This document shows positions 27,032-47,581 of a stretch of 64,000 nt of DNA, in pieces. Each line of letters opens with the position of its first letter. Within the stretch, counting starts at the first letter, position 1. This DNA comes from Patescibacteria group bacterium. Lineage in GTDB: Bacteria; Patescibacteriota; Patescibacteriia; S139-126; S139-133. The translations under genes and the position numbers were made by a program. A model generated the notes under the pieces. The model did no database searches. It was given only the letters and a program-made list of their open reading frames with translations, and was not told where the DNA came from. Location of the stretch: the NCBI GenBank assembly GCA_049604715.1, contig JBMYTV010000004.1, forward strand, positions 22,535 through 86,534, given 5' to 3'.

Positions 27032-27102
27032 ACTATTTTGGTTAGTTATTAATTTCTAACCACATTGATGACGCAACCCTGCTAGTGAGTCCAGGATACT
27101 TG

Positions 27103-27122: not shown

Positions 27123-27172
27123 GTTTTAAGCCTTGATGTGGGTTATCAATCTGTCCCTTGTAACTATTTCAT

Positions 27173-27201
27173 TCGACAAATAGCATTGTTTTGACTATAA
27201 T
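27173..27201 (+). promoter_or_regulatory. sigma70-like promoter candidate
   Basis: TCGACA, 17-nt spacer, TATAAT; 28 nt upstream of the 27230 ATG. Confidence 0.4.
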
Positions 27202-27229
27202 GTTAAACAACTCATCAAAGTAGAAATAT

Positions 27230-27880: not shown

Positions 27881-27887
27881 TATTCAT

Positions 27888-28304: not shown

Positions 28305-28379
28305 CAATATACGTTCACGTTTTTTAGTTGTGTCAGTTTTTTTGCTGATACACATCTTTATTAATCTAACGTAACGTAT

Positions 28380-29153: not shown

Positions 29154-29162
29154 ACTTAAGAG

Positions 29163-29738: not shown

Positions 29739-29759
29739 GACACTTTAAAGACGAATTAT

Positions 29760-32236: not shown

Positions 32237-32255
32237 GAATGTAATCTACTGAACT

Positions 32256-32528
32256 ATGGTAACAAAAGACCAAACAAATAAAGAAAAAGCACTTGATAGT
32301 ATTGGATGCGCCAAAGCCAAAGTAAGTAAGATGTTGGTTATGATTGAACACAATGATGATGTGATGACGATAATCCATGAGTCAGAAGCTACCAGACGGG
32401 CATTAAAACGTGCTGACCGCATGATCATCAAACGACATCTGGAGAAAGTTGCGTATGAACAACGTGGTCATACGGGCCAAGCCACTGCACGGGAGTTATT
32501 ATCGTTACTCAAATTTTGGCTAGATTGA
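32256..32528 (+). CDS. CsoR/RcnR-family (DUF156) metal-sensing transcriptional repressor-like
   Basis: 90-aa helical protein with conserved Cys (IGCAK) and His (IIHES) positions in the CsoR-like pattern; heads the copper operon. Confidence 0.45.
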   Translation: MVTKDQTNKEKALDSIGCAKAKVSKMLVMIEHNDDVMTIIHESEATRRALKRADRMIIKRHLEKVAYEQRGHTGQATARELLSLLKFWLD

Positions 32529-32552
32529 TTACTAACCTTAAATAGCTATGTT

Positions 32553-33134
32553 ATGAATTTCAAATTACTAATTATTTTGCTGCTCATCATAGGCGGACTC
32601 GGTGTGCTCTGGTCAGTTAGTAGTTTCTTTAGTAGTAAAGGAAATGATAAGTTGGTTCAAAATCAGGAGAACTTTGAGCGAGCAATAAATGCTGAACTCC
32701 CTGATAAGTGTCAGACACCTGTAGGGTATACTAATGATGAATGGCTGGGACATATGTCGCATCATCCAGATAGGTATCAAGAATGTTTGCAGGAAGTTGA
32801 TCTGGATGCTATAGCACGTAAAGATATAGGTTCACAAGATCTGGCATTAATGCTTGAACAAAAAGACTTTGTGTTAATTGATACTCATATTCCAGAGCAA
32901 AAACACATTCCCGGAACTGACGTGTTTATTTCTTTTAACGAAATTACAGACCAACTTTCGCAGTTGCCTCAGGATAAGAATGCAAAGATCGTATTATATT
33001 GCCGTAGCGGCAATATGAGTGAGCGCGCTTCTCAGGATTTGATTGAGCTGGGTTACACCAATGTATACAATTTAGTTGGTGGAACAAATGCTTGGCAACA
33101 GGCTGGTTACTTGGTTGAGGATGTTTCACTATAA
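32553..33134 (+). CDS. rhodanese-domain sulfurtransferase, membrane-anchored
   Basis: Active-site loop YCRSGNMS; NLVGGTNAWQQAGY. Confidence 0.75.
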   Translation: MNFKLLIILLLIIGGLGVLWSVSSFFSSKGNDKLVQNQENFERAINAELPDKCQTPVGYTNDEWLGHMSHHPDRYQECLQEVDLDAIARKDIGSQDLALMLEQKDFVLIDTHIPEQKHIPGTDVFISFNEITDQLSQLPQDKNAKIVLYCRSGNMSERASQDLIELGYTNVYNLVGGTNAWQQAGYLVEDVSL

Positions 33135-33139
33135 TAGGC

Positions 33140-33592
33140 ATGAAAAAAGAACTTAGAAACAAAGCTTTATTGTGGGGAGTTATAGCAATACTTGGTATGA
33201 CATTGTTTTATATAGTGATCATGTTACTAACCATGTCACCCAGTGAAGCTTGGTTAAATTTTATTAGCCTCTGGCACTATATCGTAGGAATTATTGTTGG
33301 TTTTGGAATACAGGTTGGATTGTGGGTATATATAAAGAACTGTGGTAAGAGTAGCGCTCATGGAGCAATGCCAGGAGCAAGTGGCACCATGTCTGGCACG
33401 GCCATGGTTGCGTGTTGTGCGCATCATTTAACAGAAGTATTGCCAGTATTTGGGTTAACTGGAGCGACTATATTTCTTACGCAGTATCAAAAACCCTTTC
33501 TCATACTCGGTGTATCAATTAATATTCTTGGTATTGCATATATGCTTCAAATCCTACAGAAGCACCAAAAAATAACTATTAACAGTGAATAA
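33140..33592 (+). CDS. membrane protein with CC-HH motif, hypothetical
   Basis: 4 TM helices; MVACCAHH. Confidence 0.35.
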   Translation: MKKELRNKALLWGVIAILGMTLFYIVIMLLTMSPSEAWLNFISLWHYIVGIIVGFGIQVGLWVYIKNCGKSSAHGAMPGASGTMSGTAMVACCAHHLTEVLPVFGLTGATIFLTQYQKPFLILGVSINILGIAYMLQILQKHQKITINSE

Positions 33593-33983
33593 TTGTATGT
33601 CCAACTACGGATATTCCAAACGATTACAAGTTTCTTTTGATGAAGCGGTTGAACGAGCAGTAACTGCACTCAAAGAGCAAGGGTTTGGTATACTGACAGA
33701 TATAGACGTAAAGGAGACATTGAAGAAAAAATTAGACGTGGATTTTAAACAGTATCGCATTTTAGGAGCATGCAATCCACCTCAAGCGTATAAGGCATTG
33801 CAGTTAGAGGAAGAGCTTGGCTTGTTGTTGCCGTGTAATGTGATTGTGTATGAAAAAGATAGTGATGTAATAGTGTCTGCTTTAAAGCCGAGCGTTGCGT
33901 TCACAATTGTAGAAAATACACAACTTGAGTCAGTAGCTTCAGAGGTTGAACAAATATTAAAACAAGTGATTGATAACGTATAA
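33585..33983 (+). CDS. DUF302-family protein
   Basis: [25 protein letters not shown]...ILGACNP pattern. Confidence 0.5.
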
Positions 33984-36222
33984 AAATATGGCAAAGAAAA
34001 TACAACTAAATATTGAAGGAATGCATTGTGCGTCGTGTGTTGCACATATTGAAGGAGACCTTAAGAAAAAAGAGGGTGTTAAAAGCGCACGAGTCAATTT
34101 TGCAACTGAAACAGGGCAAGTTGAATTTGATGAATCACAGGTTAGCCAAGAAGACATTGTCCAGACAATAAAAAAGACTGGTTATAGCGCAACTCCTTTG
34201 GAAGAACCGTCACATGCTCATCATACGGAACATGGCCATGACAATTCTCATGACCATTCAGCTAGTTCTGGGCAGGATCATTCTGCTCACGCAAGTGCTG
34301 AAAGTGACCGTCAGGTAAAGGACAGGTTGAAGAAAGTAGTTATCGCAGGGGTATCGACTATAGGCATTCTTATTTTGATGGCGGTGCATATCGAGAACGG
34401 GATGTTTATCATGCTGTTGCTTTCATTAGGCGCTCTCTGGGCTGGACAAGAGTTTTTCAAAGTTGGATTTCCGGCACTACTGCGGGGTAGGCCAGATATG
34501 AATACATTGGTTGCACTTGGTGTAACAGCTGCCTTTTTATACTCAACCTACGCAACATTGTTCAATCCAGAACTTGGCGAATACTTTATGGACGTTGGTA
34601 TCATTACTACGTTTATTTTACTTGGACGCTACTTGGAAGCGCGGGCAAAAGGAAAGGCTTCAGAAGCAATTAAAAAGTTATTACAGTTATCTGCCAAAGT
34701 TGCACATAAAGTCGTGCGAGAAAATACAACACAAGATATTCCAGTTGATCAGGTTCAAAAAGGTGATGTGTTGCTCGTCAAGCCAGGAGAGAAAATTCCA
34801 GTTGATGGTGAAATAGTAAAAGGTACCGCAACGGTTGACGAATCAATGGTCACTGGCGAAAGTATTCCAGTTGATAAAAAGGAGAAAGATCAGGTGATAG
34901 GCGCTACTATCAATGGAAATCAGACATTTACTATGAAAGCTCGGAAAGTTGGTTCTGAAACAGTGCTCGCTCATATAGTGAAGCTAGTGCAAGAAGCTCA
35001 AATGTCCAGGGCACCAATACAAAAGCTGGTTGATAAAGTTTCAAAGTATTTTGTCTGGGGAGTGATCATCATAGCTATTGCTACGCTTGCAGGATGGATT
35101 AGTTTTTCAGGCGAAGCAGCACGCGCTTTGATTTACACTGTTGCTGTCCTGATTATTGCCTGCCCCTGCGCTTTAGGTCTGGCAACTCCAATATCTATTG
35201 TAGTTGGTACTGGTCGCGGTGCGTCTTTGGGTATTTTGATTAAAAATGCTGAGGCTCTTGAGAAAATGCATAAAATAACAGTGGTTGCTTTTGATAAAAC
35301 TGGAACAATTACTAAAGGACATCCAGAAGTGCAAGAATGGGTACAGATAAGCAAAGATGCTGATGCGTTACTTCCGGCAGCGCTATCTCTCGAGTCTCAG
35401 TCAGAACACCCACTGGCCAAAAGTATTGTGGACTGGTTTGCTAAGGAGAAGAATGCACTAAAACCATACAACCTTTCTGAGGTTAAGGCAGTCACAGGTA
35501 AAGGTATTGAGGGTAAAGATGAGAATAAAATCTATCGAGTTGGTAGCATAAAGTTTTTATTAGAAAGCAAAGTTACTGTTACTAAAGAGAACAAAAACAA
35601 CATTGAGACCTATGCACAAAAAGGACATACCATCATAGGCTTTGCCAAAGATGGGGAATTGGTAGGTTTCTTTGCTGTTCAGGATGGGCTCAAGGAATCT
35701 TCTGTTGAAGCTATTACTATTCTCAAAAACAGAGGCATCAAAACAGTTATGCTAACAGGAGATAATGAGGCAGTGGCAAAAGAAATAGCTCGTCAGGTGG
35801 GTATTGATGAGGTTAGGGCTGAAGTCATGCCAGAGGATAAAGTGAGCGTTATCAAAGAACTGCAAGACAAGGGTGAATTTGTAGCAATGGTCGGTGATGG
35901 TATTAACGATTCACCGGCACTTGCACAAGCGAATGTCGGTATTGCTATGGGTACAGGAACTGATGTTGCAGTAGAGACAGGAGACGTTGTGTTGGTTAAG
36001 GGTGATCTTATGAAAGCAGCTGAAGCAATCGGTCTATCTGAGGCTACACTTAAAAACATTAAGCAAAATCTTTTTTGGGCTTTTATATACAATACAGTTG
36101 GTATCCCGATTGCGGCTTTGGGATTCTTAAGCCCAGCGTTCAGTGCTGCTGCTATGGCTTTTAGCAGTATTTCAGTTGTATTAAATGCTTTGCGGTTAAA
36201 GAAGGTTAAGATGACAAAATAA
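33970..36222 (+). CDS. copA: copper-translocating P1B-type ATPase
   Basis: [11 protein letters not shown], His-rich linker, [30 protein letters not shown]. Confidence 0.9.
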
Positions 36223-36226
36223 TTTC

Positions 36227-37699
36227 ATGAAATTCAGAGCTATTATTAGTATTGTCGTATTTGCATTGATTGCAGGAGGTGGTGTGTGGTTGTATAAAAA
36301 TCAACAAAATACGGAAGGTGTTATTCGGCAAACAAATAGCGATATCAGTAACATCAAACAAGGTTTGCGCAAAGAATTTGCAGATGCTTATGAGAAAGAC
36401 AGCGTACCAAGTGGAAAGGTGGTAGCTTTTGACATGATTGCTGAGCCTAGTACTGTTGAATTATTTACTCAAGATGATGTGGGACTGGAGTTAGATGATT
36501 ATACAACCAGTGTGTGGACCTATAATGGTACGGTGCCAGGTCCTGAGATTAGGATAAAGCTTGGTGATACATTACGACTCAATTTTACTAATAATTTACC
36601 ACAAGAAACGACAGTGCATTTTCATGGCGTGCGAGTGCCAAATGCTATGGATGGAGTGCCAGGAATAACGCAAGAACCTATACAACCGGGCGATAGTTTT
36701 GTATATGAATTTACTCCAAAAGACGCAGGTACCTTCTGGTTTCATCCACATGTGAAGACATCAGAGCAGATGGAACGAGGACTATATGGAACACTGATTG
36801 TCGAGGACGAGATAGACGATCAATACACTCAAGATGTCACATGGGTAATAGACGATTGGAGAATTGGACAAGATTTGCAAATAGATCCAAACTTTAATAC
36901 CATGCATGATTTAATGCATGATGGCAGGTGGGGAAATGTTGTTACAGTTAATGGGAAGCTAGACGAGAAGCTATATGTTAAACCCGGTGAGAGAATCCGT
37001 CTTCGCCTGGTAAACACATCGAATGGACGAGTTTATGTGCCTGTTTTTGCTGGGCTAAAACCTATGGTGATAGCAGTTGATGGAATGTACGTCAAAGAAC
37101 CATTCTTGCTAGATAGATTTGAGCTAGCGCCAGGCAACCGACTTGATATTGATATTACAATTCCGGATAATGAAAGGACGTTCATTGTTTCTGACTATTT
37201 TGGACGTAATGTAAATCCATTAGGTGAGATTATTTCAGAAGGTGCAGTAGTAGCTACACCAGATTTTGAGTATCCGCATAATGATAAAGTTCCTGAATGG
37301 AATGATGTTGCTATTCTCCCTATAAATAAAGAGTATCGATTAAACGCTCGTCGCAAAAGCGGTCATGGCGTGATGGGTGGTATTGAATGGACCATCAATG
37401 ATAAAGCGTTTCCCGAATATGATCCATTTACTTTTGCCTATGATGAAATAAATATCTTTCAGTTTACTAACGAGTCTGCACGCTTGCACCCAATGCATCT
37501 ACATGGACAATTTTTCAAAGTTATTTCCAAAAATGGCCAGATAGCTAATGAAGAATATTTTCGTGATACAGTCTTAGTAGGATCAAAAGAAACAGTAGTT
37601 TTGGCTACCGTACCTCTCGATAAGGGTTCATGGGTTAACCACTGCCATACTCTTGAACACGCTGAAGCTGGGATGCTAACTGTTGTAGAAGTAGAATAA
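36227..37699 (+). CDS. multicopper oxidase
   Basis: HFHGVRVP, WFHPHV, HPMHLHG, HCHTLEHAEAGM copper-site motifs; N-terminal TM/signal. Confidence 0.85.
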   Translation: MKFRAIISIVVFALIAGGGVWLYKNQQNTEGVIRQTNSDISNIKQGLRKEFADAYEKDSVPSGKVVAFDMIAEPSTVELFTQDDVGLELDDYTTSVWTYNGTVPGPEIRIKLGDTLRLNFTNNLPQETTVHFHGVRVPNAMDGVPGITQEPIQPGDSFVYEFTPKDAGTFWFHPHVKTSEQMERGLYGTLIVEDEIDDQYTQDVTWVIDDWRIGQDLQIDPNFNTMHDLMHDGRWGNVVTVNGKLDEKLYVKPGERIRLRLVNTSNGRVYVPVFAGLKPMVIAVDGMYVKEPFLLDRFELAPGNRLDIDITIPDNERTFIVSDYFGRNVNPLGEIISEGAVVATPDFEYPHNDKVPEWNDVAILPINKEYRLNARRKSGHGVMGGIEWTINDKAFPEYDPFTFAYDEINIFQFTNESARLHPMHLHGQFFKVISKNGQIANEEYFRDTVLVGSKETVVLATVPLDKGSWVNHCHTLEHAEAGMLTVVEVE

Positions 37700-37703
37700 G
37701 CGC

Positions 37704-37723
37704 AGTCGACAAACTGTTGGTAA
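37704..37723. repeat. 20-bp direct repeat, copy B (AGTCGACAAACTGTTGGTAA)
   Basis: 19/20 identical to 27103-27122; 4 nt after the multicopper oxidase stop. Confidence 0.5.
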
Positions 37724-37997
37724 CTCGCCTTCGCAAGAAGGTGAGAATGAGCTAGTATACACTGGACTTTTAGGTCTATTAGAGCTAAAATGTCATTGAC
37801 AATTGAGATTACCTAACCCCATAAATATTCGTGTTTATGGGCATGGTAGAAAGACTCGTGAAAGATACTGAACCCTGCGTTCAGCGCTTTCACGAGCCAT
37901 ATGGGGAAACTCATATGGGTCCGCAAGGACCAGCTGGCGTGGGGCTTTGTGTTTCCATAGCCAGCGAGCTTAATAATAGTCTACTAACTACACATCT

Positions 37998-39059
37998 ATG
38001 GATACACTATTCCTCCTCTTAATGTTTGGATCAGTTATCTCTTTAATGATCGGACTGATCAAACCTAGTATATTTGAAAAATTATTCAAAAGCATTCCCA
38101 CTAGAAAAAAATTAGCTGGCATCTTTGGTGGAGCAACCATCTTTTTCTTTATTGCTTTCGGCATTACAACTCCTCCAGTTGAACCAACCGAAGAGAACGC
38201 TACTAATATTACTCAACAGGAAGCAGCGGTTGAGACTCCTGAACCAAATAAGATTACTGAATCTGAGGAAGTTATAGATGATACTTCAGAGGCACCTACT
38301 CAGGTCAATAACAGTTTGCAAACGAGTGACGCTAATGAATTAGTTAACAGTCAAAAGTCACAACAAGAAAACACTGAAAACCAAGTACAGCCAGTAGAAA
38401 GTAATAATGAACAATTCTATTCAGTAACCAGCGTAGTAGATGGTGATACAGTAAAAGTAAATATCAATGGAACTACAGAAACCCTCCGCCTCATAGGTAT
38501 AGACACTCCAGAAACCGTCCATCCCTCAAAACCAGTTGAGTGTTTTGGAAACGAGGCGTCAAACAAAGCTAAAGAATTGCTTAGTAACAAACAGGTAAGA
38601 CTGGAATCGGATGTTTCTCAAGGCGAACGTGACGTATATGGTAGATTGCTATCGTATGTATTTTTACCTGACGGCACTAACTTCAACCAACTCATGATCC
38701 AAGAGGGATATGCGTATGAATACACCTACAATATTCCATACAAATATCAATCAGCATTTAAACAGGCACAAACAGACGCACAAAATAACAAACGTGGTTT
38801 GTGGGCAGATGGTGTATGTGACGAATACGAAGACGAGCCAGTAGCAGTTGAACCAGAAGAAACAACTCCACCACCAACTGAGCCAGCTTCAGATGGATAT
38901 AAGTGGTATGTGAGTAGTCACCATAGCTCTAAGCAATACTACTGCGAAACAGATGATGGTTGGAGAGGGTTATCTGAAAGTTATCTGAAAGAATACACTT
39001 CAGAAGCGGCACTTCTAGCAGACTTTCCTAATCACACACTCAATGAGCCATGCAAATAG
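37998..39059 (+). CDS. membrane-anchored thermonuclease (staphylococcal nuclease-like) with C-terminal extension
   Basis: VVDGDTVKV...LRLIGIDTPE...ECFGNEAS...RLESDVSQGERDVYGRLLSYVF...EGYA SNase pattern. Confidence 0.75.
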   Translation: MDTLFLLLMFGSVISLMIGLIKPSIFEKLFKSIPTRKKLAGIFGGATIFFFIAFGITTPPVEPTEENATNITQQEAAVETPEPNKITESEEVIDDTSEAPTQVNNSLQTSDANELVNSQKSQQENTENQVQPVESNNEQFYSVTSVVDGDTVKVNINGTTETLRLIGIDTPETVHPSKPVECFGNEASNKAKELLSNKQVRLESDVSQGERDVYGRLLSYVFLPDGTNFNQLMIQEGYAYEYTYNIPYKYQSAFKQAQTDAQNNKRGLWADGVCDEYEDEPVAVEPEETTPPPTEPASDGYKWYVSSHHSSKQYYCETDDGWRGLSESYLKEYTSEAALLADFPNHTLNEPCK

Positions 39060-40550
39060 TTAAAACGTCATGTCTCGTATACCAGCCATTATGGGTCTGC
39101 AGTTTTTAGTCATAAGACGATCCCAGTTAATTCTGGCTCTAGTTATCCCAAGCGCATAATTAGCTGCCATAACAAACGCATCTACTAAATCATCATATCG
39201 CTCTGAACCAAAGAAGAGTATTTGATTAATCAACTCTTCAGCACCTTCTTCGGGGAATACAATAACACCTTCTTTTATTGCAACACTTATTTCTGCTAAG
39301 CGAGATCGTTTGTCCATGCCTTGTGGTGAGACTCCTTTGGCTGGATAACCTTCTCTGCCCAGGTCATCAACCAGCCAAGCCTGGGCAGCCACATCTTCAA
39401 TCAATAGTTTGGATAAGTTTTCACCACCGAGTTGTTCAGACAATGCTTTTGCTTGGGTGCGAATATCAGAAATATTCAATCGCTTGTTGATGGGATTTGG
39501 TAGCACATAGATCCTAAAGTTTTCGTCATAGCCATAGACCTTTACAGAAACCATGGCTGTTTTGTCTGCTGAATCCTTTAATGATATAGCAGGATCAATA
39601 GCTGTGACTACTTGTCTAAATGGTCGTTTGTCATCTGTATCAGACGGCAGACTCTTGAAATAGTGTATCCATTCAGGCAACACCACTCTGCTGGCATCTG
39701 AAATGAAGTTGAGCATGTATTCACGTTGGAACGTAACTTCATTACCGGTTTTAAGTTTCAGTGACTCAATAGATTTTTGATCAGTAAACTTACCTGACCA
39801 CAACACTTTGTTTTCGTTATTGACTAGTGGATATTCTTTAAAGATCCCATTCATTTTGCGTGATTCAATACCTCGTCTGAGTCTCATGATAACAGAGTCT
39901 TCGTGGAGCAAGTTGCCAATGATTACAATATTGGTATCCTGATCTCCAGCAGGAAATACATCACCCAAAAGCCAGTTATATAACTTGTCCCGTGAGTCTC
40001 TGTTTTTCATGGAATTCAGATCTTCGATATCATCTGCAATGATAAGATCAGGTCTGTGTTCATAATGTCGTATACCACGAATACTTTGATCTGATGAAGC
40101 GACAGTAATTCGAGCATTGTATTGAGGAATGACAATAGAATACGAACCCCATTCTTCATTGGACTCTTCAAATGGTCCAAGGTCGCTTTTGAGTAGTAGA
40201 TTATGCTCAAGTTCCTGCTTTAGATTCATCATCATTTGTTTTGCTTTTTGTTGGGTTTGAGCAAGTATTACTATGAACTTCTTTTGTAGTTTTCCTAAGA
40301 TTGCCCAGATGGGCAGAGAAGTGGAGATAATAGTAGACTTGCCTGATCCTCTGAATGCGACAATAACTGCCAGAGGGATCTTGCCATCTTCGGTAATACT
40401 AAAGATTTCTTTTTGGAATGAAGCGGTTGGGTATTTCACGTAATGAGCAAAGTAGATGTTAAAAAACCAATAATGACTTTCATGTGCTAGAGATCTACGA
40501 ACTATTGGATCTTTCATAACTCGCTCAGCTACTTGTTTAGGATTTGTCAT
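39060..40550 (-). CDS. phage terminase large subunit
   Basis: Walker A AFRGSGKST, Walker B-like LIIADDIED, C-terminal nuclease-like half; 496 aa. Confidence 0.75.
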   Translation of the reverse strand: MTNPKQVAERVMKDPIVRRSLAHESHYWFFNIYFAHYVKYPTASFQKEIFSITEDGKIPLAVIVAFRGSGKSTIISTSLPIWAILGKLQKKFIVILAQTQQKAKQMMMNLKQELEHNLLLKSDLGPFEESNEEWGSYSIVIPQYNARITVASSDQSIRGIRHYEHRPDLIIADDIEDLNSMKNRDSRDKLYNWLLGDVFPAGDQDTNIVIIGNLLHEDSVIMRLRRGIESRKMNGIFKEYPLVNNENKVLWSGKFTDQKSIESLKLKTGNEVTFQREYMLNFISDASRVVLPEWIHYFKSLPSDTDDKRPFRQVVTAIDPAISLKDSADKTAMVSVKVYGYDENFRIYVLPNPINKRLNISDIRTQAKALSEQLGGENLSKLLIEDVAAQAWLVDDLGREGYPAKGVSPQGMDKRSRLAEISVAIKEGVIVFPEEGAEELINQILFFGSERYDDLVDAFVMAANYALGITRARINWDRLMTKNCRPIMAGIRDMTF

Positions 40551-40962
40551 ATGTTTCTTTGTTAGTGGTTAAAGATGCCAGTTCTAAGGCTTTTTCAACG
40601 ATTGCCTGTTGTTCAGGACTCAGTTCTTTTATTTCTCGTTTGAGTTTGGCTGTAACTTCTACTTTAGTGGCATACATAGGGTGGTGATGCTTGAGCCAGA
40701 AGATAATAGCGGTCATGTTTCTATCTTTGATAGCATCAAGTAACTTAGCCTCTGCCATATCATTGACTAGATCAGCACCATGTTTAATTGCTTCACCCGT
40801 GGCTTTAGCAAATTCAGGATCTTCTTTACGCCAGCGATAGTAGGTAGCACGACTGACATTTTCACGACCACAAGCGTATTGAACAATTGGTGTTTTACGT
40901 AAGCGTTCAAGTAATGCTTGTTTGTTTTTCTCTTTTCGTTCGTTAATAGTTTGATTACTCAT
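40537..40962 (-). CDS. phage terminase small subunit-like HTH protein
   Basis: HTH ...CGRENVSRATYYRWRKEDPEF...; overlaps terL by 14 nt. Confidence 0.5.
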   Translation of the reverse strand: MSNQTINERKEKNKQALLERLRKTPIVQYACGRENVSRATYYRWRKEDPEFAKATGEAIKHGADLVNDMAEAKLLDAIKDRNMTAIIFWLKHHHPMYATKVEVTAKLKREIKELSPEQQAIVEKALELASLTTNKETYDKS

Positions 40963-42277
40963 ATTTCTTACGTTTAAGACCAGTTAATTTCTCCCATCTA
41001 TTCATGATTACTTCAGCATAGACGGGTGATTTTTCCATGAGATAGCACCGGCGTTTCATCTTGGTAGCTGCAATCAAAGTAGATCCACTACCACCAAAGG
41101 GTTCTACAATTAGGTCGTCACGTTTGGTTAAGACCTTTATGTAGGGGATTAATATCTCCACTGGCTTTGTGCCAAAGATGATTCCTTGACCAGATGACTG
41201 TTCGTCACTGGCTTTGTAATCAATAAAATCAGTTGGTGCGTATTTTTTACCCTTCTTGTATCCTTCCCAATGTGGTTTGCCTGAAATAGCAAACAAAGCC
41301 GTCTCATATTCTTCTTGTAGTAATGTTTCTTCAGATTCTTGATTCAGTGTTCGTTCTCCGCTAGTGCCAACCATGGCAATGTCATGTTTTGAGAAGAATT
41401 TGTACTTAGCTGCAAATCCTTGTGTTCTATTAGGTAGGCGCCACACAATCATATTTTTAACCTTCCAATGCTTTTCCATTTCGTTCCAGATCGTACGTAT
41501 GTTCTTCCAGTTCTCATACACGATGATTGAGAAGTCGTTCTTTGCCACTTGAGTAATGTTGTTCATCCATAGCTCCGTAAAATTATCTGGTAGTACATCT
41601 GTCTCTAAATACCTACGATCACGTTTGTATCCAAACCCTTCATTCTTTTTGTTTTTCTTTTTACCTTTGAGGTAGTCGAGAATATATGGAGGGTCGGTGA
41701 AGCACATATCAGCTTGCTTTCCATTCATAAGCTTCAGGACATCTGCTTCAACAGTAGAGTCACCACACATGAGCTTTGAGTCACCAAGCTGATACACATC
41801 ACCTTTTTTTACTTTGACTTCTGTGATGTTCAGTTTTTCCAACTCTTTTTTTAAGTCAAATTCTTCTGGATTGTCGTCGATATCAAATACATTATCCAGT
41901 TCCTCGCTGGAGAACCCGACATCTGAAAGAAACGACTCATCAAACTTAGCTAACAGATCAAAGTCAAATTCACCAGTATTTTTGTTGAGTCGGATATTCA
42001 GCTCTTTTTCTTTTTCAAGATCTGGAATGTTGACGTAGACAACTGGAATTGAATCAACACCCAAGTCCTTTGCAATTTTGAGCCTAAAGTGACCTCCGAT
42101 AACTATGTTCATTCTGTCTGGAGCAGAGTTACATATTATTGGGTCAACTAGCCCAAAGCGTTTGATGCTTTCAGTTAGTTGAGCAATGGCATCCTCACTC
42201 CATTTACGTGGATTATATGTTGCGACCTTGAGGTCTTTGGCAGGGAGGTATACAACCTCCATTTTTGCGTTTTGCAT
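40955..42277 (-). CDS. ParB-like nuclease domain fused to a beta-class DNA (N6-adenine/N4-cytosine) methyltransferase
   Basis: N-terminal ParB/Srx (DPIICN...IVIGGHFRLKIAKDLG); motif IV FTDPPY precedes motif I EPFGGSGST. Confidence 0.8.
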   Translation of the reverse strand: MQNAKMEVVYLPAKDLKVATYNPRKWSEDAIAQLTESIKRFGLVDPIICNSAPDRMNIVIGGHFRLKIAKDLGVDSIPVVYVNIPDLEKEKELNIRLNKNTGEFDFDLLAKFDESFLSDVGFSSEELDNVFDIDDNPEEFDLKKELEKLNITEVKVKKGDVYQLGDSKLMCGDSTVEADVLKLMNGKQADMCFTDPPYILDYLKGKKKNKKNEGFGYKRDRRYLETDVLPDNFTELWMNNITQVAKNDFSIIVYENWKNIRTIWNEMEKHWKVKNMIVWRLPNRTQGFAAKYKFFSKHDIAMVGTSGERTLNQESEETLLQEEYETALFAISGKPHWEGYKKGKKYAPTDFIDYKASDEQSSGQGIIFGTKPVEILIPYIKVLTKRDDLIVEPFGGSGSTLIAATKMKRRCYLMEKSPVYAEVIMNRWEKLTGLKRKKYE

Positions 42278-42607
42278 AAGCGTATATGGTTAGTAATTAA
42301 TAAACAAACAAAAAAGGGCCTAAAACAAACCCACTTAACGCAAATAATGCGAAATAGATTTATTTTAGGCCCCGGTCAACGAACAGGAACGAGATGTTCC
42401 CACGCCTTCATACGCCGCAGAGTCTATACGATAACCAACCGCCAGGCTACAAAGCCTTGTATGGCGCCGGTTGATTAAAGATTAATTGTAATGTCCTAGT
42501 ATTAGGGTAGCATATTGCTCAATAACGTTCAAGTCTTGACTGTTGGGGATAAAAAGAGTATGCTAGCAATAACAACAAATGACAAGAAATGATAACAAGT
42601 AACAAGA

Positions 42608-42619
42608 CCTGTTAACAGG
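42608..42619. promoter_or_regulatory. perfect 12-bp palindrome CCTGTTAACAGG, candidate operator of the LexA-like repressor
   Basis: Seen directly, 12 nt upstream of the repressor ATG; CTGT..ACAG half-sites. Confidence 0.4.
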
Positions 42620-42631
42620 CTATTTGCTCAT

Positions 42632-43282
42632 ATGCATATACTCCAACAAAGAATTCTAAATTTAGCTCAACAAGTAGACCTATCAAAACTAGGCTTACGA
42701 AAGCTAGGTAATCTACTCCATGAGAAATGGCCACAGAAGGTGAAGCACCATTTGCTGCAGTTGGAAGAGAACGGTTATGTGAAATTGGATACCAACAAGA
42801 GCCGGGTTATAAAAGTTTTAAAAAAGGGAAAACCAGCTCAGGGCTCAAAATTATTCAGGATCCCCATCTTGGGTTCTGCAAATGCTGGACCTGCTACTAT
42901 ATATGCGGATCAAGATGTTCAGGGTTATTTGCCAATATCTCAAACGGTTTTAGGCAGAAATAGCACCGATGGTTTGTTTGCCATCAGAGTAGTGGGCGAT
43001 TCTTTAAATAGAGCCACGGATGTTAAAGGTGGTCCAGTTAATAATGGTGATTATGTTGTTGTAGATAGTAAAGTAACAAAACCAAGTAATGGTGATTATG
43101 TGCTATCAGTGATTGACCAAGTGGCAAACCTGAAGCGATACTATGAAGATCCTAAGCATCGTGAGATACGACTAGTGTCGGAATCTAGTTTAGACATACC
43201 TCCTATTGTGTTACATGAGAAGGATTTTGATTCATCAGACTATTTAGTTAATGGAAAAATAATTAAAGTTGTAAAGAGTTAG
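42632..43282 (+). CDS. LexA/CI-like repressor (winged-helix N-terminus plus S24 peptidase domain)
   Basis: LexA-like DNA-binding (LLQLEENGYVKL), Ala-Gly cleavage site (SANAGPA), GDSLN serine and LKRY lysine dyad. Confidence 0.75.
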   Translation: MHILQQRILNLAQQVDLSKLGLRKLGNLLHEKWPQKVKHHLLQLEENGYVKLDTNKSRVIKVLKKGKPAQGSKLFRIPILGSANAGPATIYADQDVQGYLPISQTVLGRNSTDGLFAIRVVGDSLNRATDVKGGPVNNGDYVVVDSKVTKPSNGDYVLSVIDQVANLKRYYEDPKHREIRLVSESSLDIPPIVLHEKDFDSSDYLVNGKIIKVVKS

Positions 43283-43285
43283 AGT

Positions 43286-43990
43286 ATGAATATATTTAAC
43301 GAGTATACTTTGAAAGCTAGGATTGTTCCCGCGTGTATTACTTTAATACCTATTTTGGTTTTATATAATTTTTTTCTTCAGTTATATATTAATGATTTTG
43401 TAAATTTCGTAAATAATTTTTTTATACTAGCCAGTAACGTCTCTCTGGCTATAATCATGATTTTTGTTTTTGCTCAATTTGGTAGATCAGTTGGCAAGTT
43501 CTTGTTTGAAAAAATACACTTTAAGGATCAGTTACAATTCCCAACAACTGATTTTCTTTTGTATCAAAATGATAAATTGAGTAAAGAATATAAAGAAAAA
43601 ATCAGACAACAAATTGAGAATGATTTTCAAATAAAGCTTCTGGATCAAAAAGAAGAGAATGCTGATATTGATTCAGCAAGAAAGAAAATAGTAGAAGCAG
43701 TTGGCTTGGTTAGAAATAAAGTAAAGGACGGGAGGTTATTATTACAGCATAATATAGAGTATGGTTTTTATAGAAATGTTGTTGGTGGATCGGTAATTGC
43801 CACTGCTATCTCGATATTGAATATGCTTCTTTTTTTAATTTATTTGCCAAATGAAATTGCGCTTACCTTATCAGTGATTTTGTTTGTAGTTTATTTAATG
43901 CCAATAATATTTAGTAAAAAAATTTTAAATACGCATGGACATAAATACGCAGAACTACTTTTTCAAGAATATCTTTCTAACACAAATTAA
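43286..43990 (+). CDS. membrane protein, hypothetical
   Basis: 234 aa, 3-4 TM helices, Lys-rich central segment. Confidence 0.4.
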   Translation: MNIFNEYTLKARIVPACITLIPILVLYNFFLQLYINDFVNFVNNFFILASNVSLAIIMIFVFAQFGRSVGKFLFEKIHFKDQLQFPTTDFLLYQNDKLSKEYKEKIRQQIENDFQIKLLDQKEENADIDSARKKIVEAVGLVRNKVKDGRLLLQHNIEYGFYRNVVGGSVIATAISILNMLLFLIYLPNEIALTLSVILFVVYLMPIIFSKKILNTHGHKYAELLFQEYLSNTN

Positions 43991-44001
43991 TATTAATTAA
44001 T

Positions 44002-44922
44002 ATGACAAGGATACACTTTTTAAATGTTGGGGCCGGAGACTGTGCAATTATACACTTTCCTCCAAGAGAAATAACTGATGCTAGTGGTCGTTTAATAAAA
44101 ACTAAAAATGAAAGGATCATGATGATTGATATGAATCATCATGATAGCCACGATGAATACGAAGACGTTATTAGCTACTATAAGTTACATTTCGGCACAA
44201 AACCTATATTTAGGTTTATTTGCACGCACCCACATCACGATCATATATGTGGATTACATAAAATTTTTGCAGATCAGGATATAGAAATTTTAAATTTTTG
44301 GGACGTCATTCATGGCTTTGCACCCGAAAGTTTTGACGGTCATACTTGGCATAAAGCTGATTGGGACACATATCAACATTTGAGGAGTGACAGTACCCAA
44401 ACTCCGAAAACGATAAATGTTCTTAGAGAGACTGCTCCTTTTGCTTTTTGGGATGATAGTGAGGATAGGATCAGTGTATTGTCGCCAACTTTAGATATGA
44501 TTAAAGAGTTGCATGGACCTAAGCAGGATGGAAGTAAGCGTGAAGCTCACGAGGTGGATATTGATGATTTATCTTATGCTCTATTGCTTAAGATTGGTCC
44601 TATTAAGGTGGTTTTTGCCGGAGACGGACGTGAACAGGTTTGGAATGATATAGTTGAGAATTGCGGCTCTTTAATACAAAATACTCATATATTAAAGGCT
44701 GGTCATCATGGACATGAGTCAGGTTTTCATGAGGAAGCTATTAAGTTAATGGATCCAGAATTTATTATTTTTTCGAATAGTGCTAATGAAGATGGTAAAA
44801 ACGGGGCTAGTTCATTGTATGAAACAGCTGTGCCAGGAGTTGATGTATATAAGACGTTCGAACTAGGTAATATCATTGCTAACTGTGATTACGACGGATC
44901 AATAGAGTTTGAATATAGTTAA
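44002..44922 (+). CDS. metallo-beta-lactamase-fold hydrolase (ComEC-like MBL domain), standalone
   Basis: HFLNVGAGDCAII, THPHHDHICG (HxHxDH), KAGHHGHESG. Confidence 0.65.
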   Translation: MTRIHFLNVGAGDCAIIHFPPREITDASGRLIKTKNERIMMIDMNHHDSHDEYEDVISYYKLHFGTKPIFRFICTHPHHDHICGLHKIFADQDIEILNFWDVIHGFAPESFDGHTWHKADWDTYQHLRSDSTQTPKTINVLRETAPFAFWDDSEDRISVLSPTLDMIKELHGPKQDGSKREAHEVDIDDLSYALLLKIGPIKVVFAGDGREQVWNDIVENCGSLIQNTHILKAGHHGHESGFHEEAIKLMDPEFIIFSNSANEDGKNGASSLYETAVPGVDVYKTFELGNIIANCDYDGSIEFEYS

Positions 44923-44942
44923 GACATATACTTAAAAAAATT

Positions 44943-45977
44943 TTGACCAGTATGGCAATTTTTATACCAGATAAAAACATAAAATCTAATGATAGCTTTG
45001 GTCAAGCTGTTAATAAAGCGCATTTAGACTATATAAATTCAGAGCTCAAAAACAGGAAACTGAAAGGTTTCACAGTTGCTGGTGTTGAAATAATTTTGAG
45101 CGGTAAGCATAAAGTTTACTTTGATGGGGAAGTACAAATGTCAATTGAGTTCAAAGATAAAAAACTCAAACCGTCGGATAAGGGGAAAAACATTAGCTTA
45201 AATTTACATGATATTAAAGATATTAAATGGCAGGACCCTAAGTTAAAAAAGAATGCTGCTAGAATACTCATCTGGCGCTTTAATAACGACTGGTGGATTT
45301 GGGATGCTGATTTTAAGCAAAACAAAAAGCTTGAGGAAAGTTTTAAAATTTCTAGAAGTTTTGCTGTGCGAGGTGGAGGTTACATGCCTCTGAGTTTACG
45401 ACGAAAAGAAAGACCTGATTTCATCAGTGGGTGGAAAGATGGATTGGATAAAGAGCTCTCAGCAATGTGGAGGCGACATATAACGGTTTCGCAGCGCTAT
45501 CGAGGGGTAATAGTATATGATGGTAACTATTTCGATCTATTTTCTCATGCCCAAGAACTTTATGTATTAGGTTATTATTATTCGTCGATAGTGATATGTC
45601 GTACTGCTGCAGAGCAGGCGTTAATTCAGATATTACGAAAATCTGGAAAGGGATTTGAGATATACAAAAGAAATAAAGGAAAGAAAAAGTTAAAAAGTAT
45701 TGAGCAGTTAACCACGGCTTGTCGTAGTTATGCCTTATTTCATAAAAAATATCCAATTAATAAAACGGCTGCACGTAAAGCGAATGAGATATCTGTAATA
45801 GCAGGAAATTTAGTACATCCTAAGACCGGTTTAAAAGAATTGGATGTGTATAAAGAGGACGCATTAAAGTGCATGGATAACTTGCAGTATATAATAAAGA
45901 ACCATTTAAATTTTATCAAAGATACTGGAGTTGTATCTGGTTATAAAATAACAGGTTCTTCTAAGCGATTAAAATAG
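44943..45977 (+). CDS. hypothetical protein
   Basis: 344 aa, Lys-rich, no recognised motif; tightly spaced within the operon. Confidence 0.4.
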   Translation: MTSMAIFIPDKNIKSNDSFGQAVNKAHLDYINSELKNRKLKGFTVAGVEIILSGKHKVYFDGEVQMSIEFKDKKLKPSDKGKNISLNLHDIKDIKWQDPKLKKNAARILIWRFNNDWWIWDADFKQNKKLEESFKISRSFAVRGGGYMPLSLRRKERPDFISGWKDGLDKELSAMWRRHITVSQRYRGVIVYDGNYFDLFSHAQELYVLGYYYSSIVICRTAAEQALIQILRKSGKGFEIYKRNKGKKKLKSIEQLTTACRSYALFHKKYPINKTAARKANEISVIAGNLVHPKTGLKELDVYKEDALKCMDNLQYIIKNHLNFIKDTGVVSGYKITGSSKRLK

Positions 45978-45996
45978 GTATTTTTTAATTAATAAC

Positions 45997-47097
45997 ATGA
46001 AACCTCATCTCAAAGAACATCAATATTACTCCGACCTATACGACCGTCATACAGTCGAAAATTGTCGCGGGATAGAATCAAGATATAACGAATCTATCAA
46101 GAACAGAGTTGGCAAGAAAATGACAGAGAAAGACAGTGCTAACCTAACAGCTCATAGGCTGATAATGTACTTTGAAACTGGAGAGCGATACATCAAGAAA
46201 CAAAAAACTATAGATGAATGGATAGCTAGAGATACAGCCAGAGATGATTTATATAATTCAGCTCAAGCCTCAGAGGAAATACGCTGTTTAACGTGCAGTA
46301 CATTAATGACAGTTACTTTAAAAGATTTACAGATTTCAATACTTGAAGATTCTAAAGATAGAATACTATTCATGTATGATTGTCCTAACAAATGCCTACC
46401 CAGACGGGCTTTTTTTGATAATGGTGAAGAATGGAAACCAAAAGTACATTTATGCCCTAAATGTAATACTGAACTAGAATCTTCTAATGAAAGAAAGGGA
46501 GATAAAGTAATAACTACCGAGACTTGTAATCAATGCGATTATTCAAATGTAGATGAATTAGATTTGTCTGCTAAAAAAGAAAAACCCAAAATAGATAAAG
46601 ATTTTGAAAAAGATAGAGCTAGGTTTTGTTTAAGTGAAGAAGAAGGGCAGAAGTATATTCAAGCAAAAACAAATATGGAGCAAATGAAGCACTTGGTTGA
46701 TGAAATGAAAGAACGAGAAAAGAATAAGGATACTTATGATAAAGTCGCCAAGCTCAAAAAACTCACCTTAGTTCAATTAGAAAACACTCTGACCCCAGAG
46801 CTTGAAAAGAATGGCTATATAAAATTAGAATTAGCCACTCCAGAAATGGATAAAGATGTAATAGTAGGTTTTACGGTCAGGGAAAGCAAAGATGATCGAG
46901 AAGAATATGATAGCAAAAATCAACTTAAGAAGTTGGTCCAGAATTTACTCAAAGATACCAACTGGCGATTGATGAGTGATGGGATTCATTATAGATTAGG
47001 TATCCTCCAGGGGAGACTCAGGGCTTACGAGAGGGAAGGAGATTTGAAGAAACTTGTTTTATCACAACTGCGACAGAAGAGTAAAGAAGTTGTATAA
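45997..47097 (+). CDS. hypothetical protein with two Cys4 zinc-ribbon-like motifs and a central coiled coil
   Basis: CLTCST...CPNKC and CPKCNT...CNQCD; KE-rich helical middle. Confidence 0.4.
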   Translation: MKPHLKEHQYYSDLYDRHTVENCRGIESRYNESIKNRVGKKMTEKDSANLTAHRLIMYFETGERYIKKQKTIDEWIARDTARDDLYNSAQASEEIRCLTCSTLMTVTLKDLQISILEDSKDRILFMYDCPNKCLPRRAFFDNGEEWKPKVHLCPKCNTELESSNERKGDKVITTETCNQCDYSNVDELDLSAKKEKPKIDKDFEKDRARFCLSEEEGQKYIQAKTNMEQMKHLVDEMKEREKNKDTYDKVAKLKKLTLVQLENTLTPELEKNGYIKLELATPEMDKDVIVGFTVRESKDDREEYDSKNQLKKLVQNLLKDTNWRLMSDGIHYRLGILQGRLRAYEREGDLKKLVLSQLRQKSKEVV

Positions 47098-47104
47098 TAT
47101 ATTC

Positions 47105-47581
47105 ATGAAGTCAAGAGAAATATTAAAACTTATTCTTGCCATAGGTATTTCACAGCTCGCAGGAATTATAGGATCGCTCTTTACCGCATCATCAATTCCT
47201 AACTGGTATGCAACTATTGAGAGGCCAGCACTGAATCCGCCGAGTTGGGTATTCGGTCCTGTCTGGACAACGCTTTATGCCCTCATGGGAATTGCTGCTT
47301 TTTTAGTCTGGAAGCAAGGCTGGGAGAAAAAGAAAGTGAAAATAGCTCTTGGAATGTTTGGTGTCCAGCTATTTTTAAACTCTATATGGTCTATTATCTT
47401 TTTCGGGTTAAATAATCCTGGTTGGGCGTTGGTTGATATCGTACTCCTGTGGTTTGCAATTGTCTGGACTATGGTTGTTTTCTATAAGATCTCAAAACCA
47501 GCTATGTATCTCCTTGTTCCATACATCCTCTGGGTATCATTTGCAACCTACTTAAACTATGCTATTTGGGCTCTCAATTAA
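47105..47581 (+). CDS. tspO: TspO/MBR-family tryptophan-rich membrane protein
   Basis: WYATIERPALNPPSWVFGPVWTTLYALMGIAAFLVW; 5 TM helices. Confidence 0.7.
   Translation: MKSREILKLILAIGISQLAGIIGSLFTASSIPNWYATIERPALNPPSWVFGPVWTTLYALMGIAAFLVWKQGWEKKKVKIALGMFGVQLFLNSIWSIIFFGLNNPGWALVDIVLLWFAIVWTMVVFYKISKPAMYLLVPYILWVSFATYLNYAIWALN

Follow-up and report, generated by a model that had tools for sequence, protein, structure and literature searches.

A mobile island of CPR bacteria carrying terminase genes, a serine recombinase and variable cargo but no capsid genes

Relationship to described satellites, phages and cassettes

Capsid-forming PICIs (cfPICI) are integrated phage satellites that encode both terS and terL of phage origin, and they are defined by also carrying capsid, portal, head-tail adaptor and connector genes, together with a primase-replicase (PMC10085698). 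PICI/SaPI and the marine VEIME/PICMI-type minimal satellites are small integrated islands with an integrase, a regulatory switch, frequent defence cargo and their own terS, which redirects helper packaging. VEIMEs are 5-6 kb, some use serine recombinases, and they are packaged as concatemers without remodelling the capsid (PMC9618062). We analyzed a 64-kb stretch of a Patescibacteria (CPR) genome (the window; 64,000 nucleotides, contig JBMYTV010000004.1 of assembly GCA_049604715.1, positions 22,535 to 86,534), which holds terminase genes but no portal, capsid or tail gene. In comparison with cfPICIs, the capsid-related genes and the primase-replicase were not found here, the integrase is a large serine recombinase, and the host range is different. 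In comparison with PICI/SaPI and VEIME/PICMI-type satellites, which rely on the TerL of the helper, the family described here always brings its own; a ParB-MTase is a fixed core gene, no primase/rep or AlpA was found, and encapsidation is unproven.

The nearest real phages are temperate Caudoviricetes of CPR bacteria known from metagenomes (loci L131, L133, L145 and L149 among those retrieved here). Their terL proteins are 35-43% identical and their terS is of the same type, and L145 has the same ParB-MTase, terS, terL order. However, in these phages terL is followed by portal, protease/scaffold and HK97 capsid genes in a long co-oriented operon, while in the element family it is followed by a recombinase or by cargo. 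The SCC elements of staphylococci are also recombinase-bounded cassettes with variable cargo (metal resistance, R-M), two copies can lie on one contig, and they have no transfer machinery of their own. The recombinase of the window scored best against CcrB in NCBIfam (3.9e-39), but the score (134.7 bits) was far below the CcrB cutoff of 900, so it is not a Ccr orthologue; in addition, SCC elements carry no terminase and the target gene differs. We found no description of this element type in the literature that could be searched.

The packaging module and its divergent repressor

First, the four genes of the module were examined by profile searches. The terL gene (39060-40550, minus strand) encodes a 496-aa protein that matched phrog_38 'terminase large subunit' (E=7.7e-73) over residues 16-470, which includes both the ATPase and nuclease halves, and its Walker A motif reads AFRGSGKST. 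The terS-like gene (40537-40962, minus strand), whose end overlaps the terL start, encodes a 141-aa HTH protein that matched the small terminase families phrog_309 (8.4e-11) and phrog_4044 (8.9e-10), although Pfam Sf6_terminase scored 22.9 bits, below the cutoff of 27. The AlphaFold model of this protein was all-helical, and its best structural neighbours were the phBC6A51 protein and the Sf6 gp1 small terminase, but the E-values were weak, so the predicted fold is consistent with this identity but gives only weak support. A search for homologues returned 1133 clusters, named 'phBC6A51 family HTH' by NCBI. The first gene of the operon (40955-42277, minus strand) encodes a fusion of ParB-N (nuclease-type) and a beta-class N6A-N4C DNA methyltransferase (Pfam ParB_N and N6_N4_Mtase, 3.3e-10 and 1.6e-20; phrog_498, 4.8e-82), in which DPPY precedes FGGSGST, the beta-class motif order.

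Divergent from this operon is a LexA-like gene (wHTH + S24; 42632-43282, plus strand), which encodes an autocleavable repressor (Peptidase_S24, 1.7e-13). TIGR00498 lexA scored 77.5 bits, below the cutoff of 110.95. However, alignment to T. maritima LexA (3k2z) showed that the wHTH domain, the Ala-Gly cleavage site, the Ser (GDS) and the Lys (LKR) are kept. The divergent control region (42278-42631) contains a terminator-like hairpin on the minus strand (42332-42316), a GC-rich stretch (42370-42480), a promoter-like site (42536-42564) overlapping the palindrome TCAAGTCTTGA, and the palindrome CCTGTTAACAGG (42608-42619). The latter lies 12 nt before the S24 start codon and is unique in the window, but one perfect 12-nt palindrome in a 354-nt spacer is only weakly unexpected (about 0.09 by our estimate of 354/4^6), and it is not conserved in other S24-bearing loci, so its role as operator is unproven. 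The region as a whole was not conserved at sequence level in other loci.

Structural genes were then sought. Portal and major-capsid profiles built from the nearest real phages hit nothing in the 64-kb window, which holds 21.7 kb upstream and 39 kb downstream, while the recombinase profile run as a control hit at 2e-206. PHROGs found no structural category among the island ORFs or the ten largest other ORFs. The initial annotation was correct in the gene identities, the operon structure, the divergent autocleavable repressor and the absence of structural genes. However, the phage immunity layout that it proposed was overstated, because a divergent S24 gene accompanies the triad in only 10 of 76 relatives with enough upstream sequence.

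The recombinase, the cargo bay and the LOOT RNA

The initial annotation covered 4.2 kb, but the element is about 17.5 kb or more. A large serine recombinase (LSR) of 428 aa (25745-27031, minus strand), the integrase of the element, lies 12 kb downstream of terL on the same strand (Pfam Resolvase 8.6e-22, Recombinase 3.1e-13 and Zn_ribbon_recom 2.5e-10) and is 64% identical to the copy in L009, a related locus. Synteny with L166, a relative without the recombinase, stops at 25745, which supports the left junction.

Between the recombinase and terL is a 12-kb cargo bay. The part from 27032 to 37809 (plus strand) is transcribed opposite to the core module, and Pfam searches showed that it contains unknown ORFs and genes for a DsbA-like thioredoxin (28380-29153), DUF1573 (29760-30581), a DsbD-like protein (30562-31785), a rhodanese (32553-33134), DUF302 (33585-33983), a Cu P-type ATPase (33970-36222) and a multicopper oxidase (36227-37699). 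The related locus L006 carries similar copper-resistance genes after its terL. In pairs of closely related elements, 0 to about 8 kb of unrelated DNA sits between the terL stop and the recombinase start, which shows that this junction is a hotspot where cargo comes and goes.

The bay also holds a LOOT RNA (Rfam RF03000; 37810-37931, plus strand), detected at 85.8 bits against a gathering score of 46.4. LOOT is known as a strongly covarying RNA of about 120 nt with six helices and no known function (PMC7657543), and no genomic context for it was given in the text that could be read. It lies 66 nt upstream of a gene for a membrane-anchored or secreted staphylococcal-type nuclease (37998-39059, plus strand; Pfam SNase 1.3e-26; PADLOC candidate C3a212 'SNc+LTD' 1.7e-48), which converges on terL with no gap, and it is probably the 5' leader of this cargo gene. 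The same placement of the RNA was seen in the related loci L009, L030, L056, L062 and L075, and the same convergent position of the nuclease gene in L009, L024, L030, L038, L039, L055, L056 and L075. A covariance model found LOOT in 41/133 element loci and in 0/19 phage loci, 42 of 46 times on the strand opposite terL.

On the other side of the repressor is a low-GC block (0.30-0.36; 43286-47097, plus strand) of four genes, encoding a membrane protein, an MBL-fold protein (44002-44922), a 344-aa ORF and a 366-aa ORF. The MBL protein matched PADLOC candidate PDC-M48B (1.8e-16), and the 366-aa protein belongs to a family found upstream of the triad in 5 other loci, but the membership of this block in the element is uncertain.

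Conservation of the element and competing explanations

Next, we investigated the distribution of the module. More than 3000 terL homologues were found, several on contigs of 0.4-0.6 Mb, and in three chromosome-sized contigs the triad appeared with terL as its last gene. We retrieved 165 loci, and 133 dereplicated relatives from CPR metagenomes were compared. The terS gene was present in 129/129 relatives and the ParB-MTase, in some split into two genes, in 100/103. In family clustering the LSR occurred in 87/137 loci at a median of +1694 nt, on the same strand in 83/90, and in the final counts it was present in 58/71 loci with at least 5 kb downstream. The portal and capsid profiles hit only 19 phage loci, the LSR profile hit 95 loci, and no locus had both; portal (phrog_2662, 1e-119) and capsid (phrog_10, 6e-90) were confirmed in the phage relatives L131 and L149. 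Walker A, Walker B, the coupling motif and the nuclease residues were near-invariant in 143 portal-less terL proteins, and terL dN/dS had a median of 0.05 and a maximum of 0.114, which indicates strong purifying selection. The flanks were not co-oriented with terL (12% and 33%, against 85% and 100% in phages). The plan that recurs is an optional repressor divergent from ParB-N/MTase, TerS and TerL, followed by a variable cargo bay, mostly transcribed the other way and often opening with a LOOT RNA leader, and then by the large serine recombinase and host DNA.

We favour, with moderate confidence, an integrative, capsid-less, satellite-like element that supplies its own terminase; its packaging into the capsids of a helper phage is inferred. 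The initial annotation had offered a decayed prophage or a PICI-like satellite. The satellite remains the best functional reading, but a PICI-like family assignment did not survive testing, because no primase/replicase was found, the integrase is a serine recombinase and a terL is present. However, there was no direct evidence of excision, circular forms or encapsidation: no contig had terminal overlaps and no att repeat was found. No replication gene was detected in the core or among recurrent neighbours, so concatemer formation is unexplained. In addition, phage copies were basal on the terL tree and at most 43% identical to the terL of the window, and the element terLs form an old, largely self-contained clade, so docking on a helper portal is not guaranteed, and no helper phage has been identified for this genome.

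A less likely possibility is a packaging-interference (defence) island, which moves only by its recombinase plus whatever transfer route is available and keeps the terminase module because it sabotages incoming phages, for example by occupying their procapsids or cutting their concatemers. The defence genes in the cargo bay of relatives (Type I and IIG R-M, reverse transcriptase, SNF2+PLD, nucleases), the PADLOC candidates matched by the MBL protein and the SNase, and the absence of detected replication genes are in favour of this reading, and known satellites combine interference with spread (PMC9618062). However, terL and terS matched no PADLOC model, and a pure decoy would not need an intact nuclease, TerS and a methyltransferase all conserved together. 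Interference and self-packaging are not mutually exclusive.

It is doubtful that the terminase has been recruited for a non-packaging job, such as processing or translocating element DNA during transfer between the episymbiont and neighbouring cells without any capsid. No capsid genes and no helper are known, and a secreted nuclease is a recurrent neighbour. However, no precedent is known for a TerL working without a portal, the nearest relatives with known context are ordinary phage terminases followed by portal and capsid genes, and the TerS/TerL pair and the packaging motifs are unchanged. Similarly improbable is a domesticated or split transfer agent (GTA-like) whose head and tail genes lie elsewhere in the genome. 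The purifying selection and the wide distribution in CPR chromosomes would fit, and only 64 kb of this genome and about 20 kb around each relative could be inspected. In contrast, the module is linked to a recombinase and a variable cargo bay and sits in different genomic contexts in close relatives, which is the behaviour of a mobile element and not of a fixed host locus; several contigs carry two diverged copies, and no structural gene lies within 10 kb in any of the 133 loci.

A decayed prophage remnant is rejected at family level. The triad is the normal start of the late operon in related phages such as L145, and no structural genes follow it here, but the same truncation recurs in 133 independent loci with a recombinase in place of the portal, terL is under selection with its catalytic motifs intact, and no pseudogenised structural fragments were detected by the portal and capsid profiles. 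A complete prophage split at an att site between terL and the portal gene is very unlikely, even though the recombinase lies next to terL in compact copies, because the 21.7 kb upstream in the window is transcribed the other way and holds no structural gene, upstream arms of relatives are only 12% co-oriented against 85% in phages, and in close pairs similarity ends about 2.5 kb upstream of terL.

In the inferred mechanism, the element descends from a temperate CPR phage and kept only the packaging-initiation module and the integrase, and the serine recombinase excises and integrates it. In this copy the LexA-like repressor would hold the packaging operon off until it self-cleaves, on DNA damage or helper infection; the S24 switch is present in only about 13% of relatives, so SOS induction cannot be the general trigger. 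TerS would then bind a pac site on the element, and TerL would cut and pump element DNA into procapsids made by a co-infecting or co-resident helper phage. The compact form is only about 5.4 kb, so this would have to be as concatemers or by headful packaging running into the cargo bay. The ParB-MTase would methylate the DNA so that it survives restriction in the next host. Competition for procapsids would at the same time interfere with the helper, which fits the defence genes that fill the cargo bay in relatives. The packaging genes are the conserved, selected core of a small mobile island that recurs in ultra-small (CPR/Patescibacteria) bacteria and probably spreads by borrowing the capsids of a helper phage.

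The packaging operon and its relatives

First, the four ORFs proposed in the initial annotation, a packaging operon of terL, a terS-like gene and a ParB-methyltransferase fusion with a divergent LexA/CI-like S24 repressor, were examined, and all four were present. The terL gene (39060-40550, minus strand, 496 aa) matched PHROG family 38 (phrog_38), 'terminase large subunit', at E=7.7e-73 over residues 16-470, so that both the ATPase and the nuclease halves were covered, and its Walker A motif reads AFRGSGKST. Terminase_6C is annotated on homologues of this protein. The 141-aa ORF at 40537-40962 overlaps the terL start. It matched three PHROG small-terminase families at 1e-10 to 1e-5 (PHROG terS families at 1e-10 to 1e-11), and Pfam Sf6_terminase below threshold, and its fold neighbours were phBC6A51 and Sf6 gp1, although these were statistically weak. 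The 440-aa ORF at 40955-42277 is a ParB_N plus N6_N4_Mtase fusion (phrog_498, 4.8e-82), in which the motif order, DPPY before FGGSGST, is beta-class. On the other strand, 42632-43282 encodes a winged-helix plus Peptidase_S24 protein, which keeps the Ala-Gly cleavage site and the Ser/Lys dyad when aligned to Thermotoga LexA. No portal, capsid or tail gene was found by PHROGs in the island ORFs or the ten largest other ORFs, or anywhere in the 64-kb window with profiles built from the nearest real phages. Host-like genes at 14666-15952 and 16469-17872 (phrog_19509, 7.8e-72 and 1.1e-143) and at 1216-4743 (phrog_12710, 3e-186) gave very strong hits to PHROG families of unknown function, but these are probably cellular genes that also occur in phages, and none is structural.

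The exact terL protein is on record from a 'Patescibacteria group bacterium' MAG. It has more than 3000 homologues, and the best 120 are all 49-56% identical apart from three closer relatives. One homologue (51% identical, 99% coverage) is labelled 'Candidatus Heimdallarchaeaceae archaeon' by NCBI, which is most likely a binning artefact. Several homologues lie on contigs of 0.4-0.6 Mb, which is chromosome size for CPR bacteria. In three such contigs the same ordered triad (ParB-MTase, small ORF, terL) appeared; terL was always its last gene, unrelated genes followed it, and large serine recombinases lay nearby. We then collected 165 loci around terL relatives from metagenomes, IMG/VR and one genome (designated by L numbers), and analyzed them by ORF calling (greedy longest-ORF calls with genetic code 11), phmmer with the proteins of the window, all-against-all clustering and family profiles. 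After dereplication and removal of loci carrying portal or capsid genes, 133 loci remained. The terS-like gene was upstream of terL in 129 of 129 loci with enough upstream sequence, the ParB-MTase (fused or split in two) was present in 100 of 103, and a large serine recombinase was present in 58 of 71 loci with at least 5 kb downstream. Since the loci were collected by similarity to terL, these frequencies describe terL neighbourhoods and not genomes, and IMG/VR membership of many loci probably reflects the terL gene itself and is not evidence of virion origin. In the clustering, the recombinase family sat at a median of +1694 nt from the terL start, which is directly after terL, and was on the same strand in 83 of 90 cases.

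The more distant terL relatives (L131-133, L145, L149-154; 35-43% identity to the window) are ordinary phages, in which terL is followed at once by a portal (phrog_2662, 9.8e-120), a protease/scaffold gene and an HK97-type major head protein (phrog_10, 5.7e-90). One of these phage loci, L145, has the full order ParB-MTase, terS, terL, portal, capsid. Profiles of these structural families hit only those loci and nine far-outgroup phages, whereas the recombinase profile hit 95 loci, and no locus had both. On a terL tree, which is neighbour-joining only, the phage copies were basal or near-basal and the recombinase-linked copies formed the large crown that contains the window. Gene orientation separated the two classes as well: around phage terLs, 85% of upstream and 100% of downstream coding sequence was co-oriented with terL, in comparison with 12% and 33% around element terLs. 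Deposited phage and plasmid genomes held nothing closer than 29% identity. Among solved structures only a T7-type ATPase domain was matched, at 1e-5, which allows no inference on pac versus cos packaging.

Across 143 portal-less terL copies, Walker A (FRGS[GA]KST), Walker B with its catalytic Glu (DLIIxDD[VI]E), the coupling motif (GNLLHED) and the acidic residues of the nuclease (D/E/DK/DD) were nearly invariant. Between pairs 70-97% identical in protein, dN/dS had a median of 0.05 and a maximum of 0.114 (45 pairs with unsaturated dS). Some loci (L043, L090, L092, L097, L098, L099) even carry two tandem full-length terL genes, for example at 2581-4179 and 4200-5732 in L043, which are only 52-64% identical to each other; these are old paralogues, both kept, between terS and the recombinase. 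In addition, single contigs of 25-55 kb (the IMG/VR contigs behind L117+L120, L091+L122 and L124+L125, and L140 with copies at 872-2077 and 9989-11521) carry two diverged copies of the whole module (75-93% identical), each with recombinase genes nearby, which suggests accretion of several elements in one region.

The recombinase, the cargo bay and the borders

The window has no recombinase directly after terL, but one lies 12 kb further downstream on the same strand, at 25745-27031. This 428-aa protein has Resolvase, Recombinase and Zn_ribbon_recom domains, all above the Pfam cutoff, is 64% identical to the recombinase of the relative L009, and was hit by the family profile at 2e-206. Pairwise comparison of loci with closely related terLs showed that this arrangement is normal. 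A block from about -2.5 kb to the terL stop was conserved, and so was the recombinase, but between them 0 to about 8 kb of unrelated DNA was present or absent. The recombinase was at +7941 in L003 and +1564 in L007, at +1487 in L059 and +9318 in L102, and at +5470 in L069 and +1634 in L083. Similarity stopped at the 3' end of the recombinase. The terL-recombinase junction is therefore a cargo bay, and the compact form of the element is about 5.4 kb.

In the window the bay (27.0-39.06 kb) is transcribed opposite to the core module and holds a DsbA-like thioredoxin, DUF1573, a DsbD-like protein, a rhodanese, DUF302, a copper P-type ATPase and a multicopper oxidase. Another relative, L006, carries similar copper-resistance genes after its terL. 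In other relatives the bay holds Type I and Type IIG restriction-modification systems, a reverse transcriptase, SNF2+PLD and ResIII+TnsA-like proteins, and DUF2779/Cas4-like proteins. PHROGs and Pfam searches of ten unknown recurrent families gave no replication or structural function.

The borders were then investigated through the flanking ABC1 kinase gene. A locus with a relative of this gene (L166, 82% identical protein) was collinear with the window up to position 25745, the recombinase stop codon, and then continued into genes that are absent from the window. A closer relative (L167, 88%) has the same recombinase and the next cargo genes. These data support a left junction at about 25745. 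L167 has an extra 285 nt (2507-2791) between the kinase gene and the recombinase, holding a terminator hairpin and a small CxxC...CxxC zinc-ribbon ORF, which the window lacks; there the two genes overlap by 8 nt (25745-25752). We compared this overlap, and the 0-nt abutment of terL and the SNase gene, with other convergent pairs in these genomes, and found that such pairs are tight throughout (median 33 nt, 44% at 22 nt or less; Fisher p 0.017 but Mann-Whitney p 0.27). Neither is therefore used as evidence. A cluster of four tRNA genes (Thr, Tyr, Thr, Trp) and a small NikA/RHH-like protein (below the Pfam cutoff) lie just left of the kinase gene, at 22477-23815 and 24004-24363. The right junction was not found, and a search for direct or inverted repeats of the left-junction sequence elsewhere in the window gave only chance 11-12-mers. 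From the pairwise comparisons, the conserved core should end within about 1 kb upstream of ParB-MTase, around the end of the S24 gene at 43.3 kb. However, the next four genes (43286-47097) form a low-GC block (0.30-0.36), and one of them belongs to a family seen upstream of the triad in five other loci, so the element could extend to 47 kb or beyond. This block includes an MBL-fold protein (44002-44922, plus strand) that matched the PADLOC candidate defence family PDC-M48B (1.8e-16) and, weakly, the NCBIfam 'anti-phage 6A-MBL system' protein; its neighbours (344 aa and 366 aa) have no annotation. The TspO/MBR gene just right of the block (47054-47581, plus strand) has a 57% identical homologue about 5.5 kb upstream of the triad in the locus L143 (323-823). 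It may also be cargo, so the right border could lie beyond 47.6 kb.

LOOT RNA and the divergent control region

A search with Rfam found a LOOT RNA (RF03000; 85.8 bits against a gathering score of 46.4) at 37810-37931 on the plus strand, 66 nt upstream of the staphylococcal-type nuclease gene (37998-39059, plus strand) that converges on terL. This secreted or membrane-anchored SNase matched PADLOC candidate C3a212 'SNc+LTD' (1.7e-48), and nucleases of this type converge on terL in at least eight other loci. The same arrangement of LOOT appeared in five of nine relatives tested with Rfam (L009 13139-13258, L075 7230-7355, L056 2526-2643, L062 9753-9875 and L030 12682-12812, all on the minus strand). 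A covariance model built from these copies found LOOT in 41 of 133 element loci, in 21 of 48 loci with at least 5 kb on both sides, and in 0 of 19 phage loci. In 42 of 46 hits it lay on the strand opposite terL, and it usually sat 50-85 nt upstream of a variable small gene. These genes mostly encode secreted or membrane proteins, such as SNase, DUF4352, a 'membrane-flanked domain' protein and others. In about 20 loci it lay 100-170 nt from the start of a divergent recombinase gene, or 38 nt after a co-oriented one. LOOT is known as a strongly covarying RNA of about 120 nt with six helices and no assigned function (PMC7657543), and its fixed place in this element family is, as far as we can tell, a new observation. 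The simplest reading is a 5' leader of the first cargo gene: in the window a promoter-like site lies about 19 nt upstream of it, and no terminator follows it.

The S24 protein is LexA-like in architecture, but it scored below the LexA equivalog cutoff (TIGR00498, 77.5 against 110.95 bits). A divergent S24 gene accompanied the triad in only 10 of 76 relatives with enough upstream sequence, a linkage that argues for an element-borne paralogue, and others have small XRE-type HTH genes, an excisionase-like HTH, or unknown co-oriented genes in that region. The repressor is therefore an exchangeable regulatory module and not a core gene. The palindrome proposed as its operator in the initial annotation, CCTGTTAACAGG, is real and lies at 42608-42619, 12 nt before the start codon of the S24 gene, but it is not conserved; another relative, L028, has CTGT-CA-ACAG at the same place. 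A second palindrome, TCAAGTCTTGA (42529-42539), of the form TCAAG(N)CTTGA, is shared with the closest S24 relative (L123, about 86 nt upstream of its S24 gene) and in the window overlaps a promoter-like -35 box; it is an alternative operator candidate. A GC-rich stretch followed by a terminator-like hairpin (42332-42316, minus strand) and a T-run lies at 42316-42480 (minus strand), just upstream of the ParB-MTase start codon, which suggests a leader and may be a transcribed leader or attenuator of the packaging operon. It is not conserved at sequence level elsewhere, and nhmmer with the 354-nt control region against all loci found only the window's own Logan copy (L001).

Possible mechanism and comparison with known elements

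The data showed an integrated element with a serine recombinase at one end, a selected and intact TerS/TerL/ParB-MTase operon, a variable cargo bay and no structural genes, which is inferred to be derived from phages that have the same operon followed by portal and capsid genes. We infer that the element excises by its recombinase and uses its own TerS and TerL to load its DNA into procapsids of a helper phage, that competition for those procapsids would interfere with the helper, and that the MTase protects the transferred DNA from restriction. This is how satellites with their own terS work (PMC9618062). However, no replication gene was found in the core or among recurrent neighbours, no circular or concatemeric contig was seen in a terminal-overlap test, no helper has been identified, and the element terLs are an old clade only 35-43% identical to the nearest phage enzymes. 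We therefore regard this satellite-type mechanism as at best slightly more likely than not, whereas we hold the architecture and the family membership with much greater confidence.

Of the other explanations, a defence-only role for the terminase module survives best but is unlikely; terL, terS, S24 and the recombinase had no PADLOC hits, and ParB-MTase matched only generic MTase_II models. A non-packaging role for the terminase is more unlikely still. A split GTA-like system, with head and tail genes under host control and an immobile locus, is about as improbable, because the locus is mobile and variable and no structural genes were found within reach, although this does not extend to the rest of the genome. 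A decayed prophage is very unlikely, since the ORFs are full length, and a one-off deletion remnant cannot explain 133 independent loci with the same plan and this level of constraint. A complete prophage with distant structural genes is the least likely.

On the inferred mechanism, the element would work most like a phage satellite. It lacks defining features of PICI, in that no primase-replicase was found and it has its own terL instead of using that of the helper. Among described satellites only cfPICIs carry terL, and they do so together with capsid, portal and head-tail adaptor/connector genes (PMC10085698); here terS and terL are present, but capsid and portal genes are absent. The element resembles VEIME/PICMI-type minimal satellites in size and, for some, in recombinase type, but it brings a complete terminase. 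It resembles SCC cassettes in being a recombinase-bounded cargo carrier, and its recombinase scored best against CcrB, but far below the cutoff. No description of a ParB-MTase/terS/terL/serine-recombinase element in CPR bacteria was found in the literature that could be searched, which is not proof that none exists. Satellites that bring their own terS are already known, and what is unusual for a satellite here is the design of terL without capsid.

CPR/Patescibacteria make up a large share of bacterial diversity, but their phages, satellites and routes of gene exchange are almost unknown. The element family is abundant (more than 1000 distinct terS clusters and more than 3000 terL homologues), carries defence and resistance cargo, and has a simple, recognisable plan, so it can be searched for systematically. 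The compact recombinase-plus-cargo-bay layout may also be of practical interest, as a source of large serine recombinases with natural cargo sites. The family would extend the satellite concept to elements that bring the whole packaging motor but nothing structural, a testable prediction about how TerL-portal specificity can be exploited. It also gives the orphan LOOT RNA a concrete genomic context, a fixed position in a mobile element upstream of variable secreted or membrane protein genes, which makes the function of this RNA approachable for the first time. Tentatively, and somewhat less likely than not, the family may be a previously unrecognised class of phage satellite that is common in CPR/Patescibacteria, with a minimal core of about 5 kb that integrates by a serine recombinase, a complete terminase (TerS + TerL) and a ParB-methyltransferase but no capsid proteins, and a swappable cargo bay (defence systems, metal resistance). 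LOOT would then be its signature structured RNA, either a leader controlling the surface or secreted 'moron' gene in the bay, or a factor in the packaging cycle itself. If so, the element would be a main route of gene exchange in a bacterial radiation for which almost no mobile-element biology is known.
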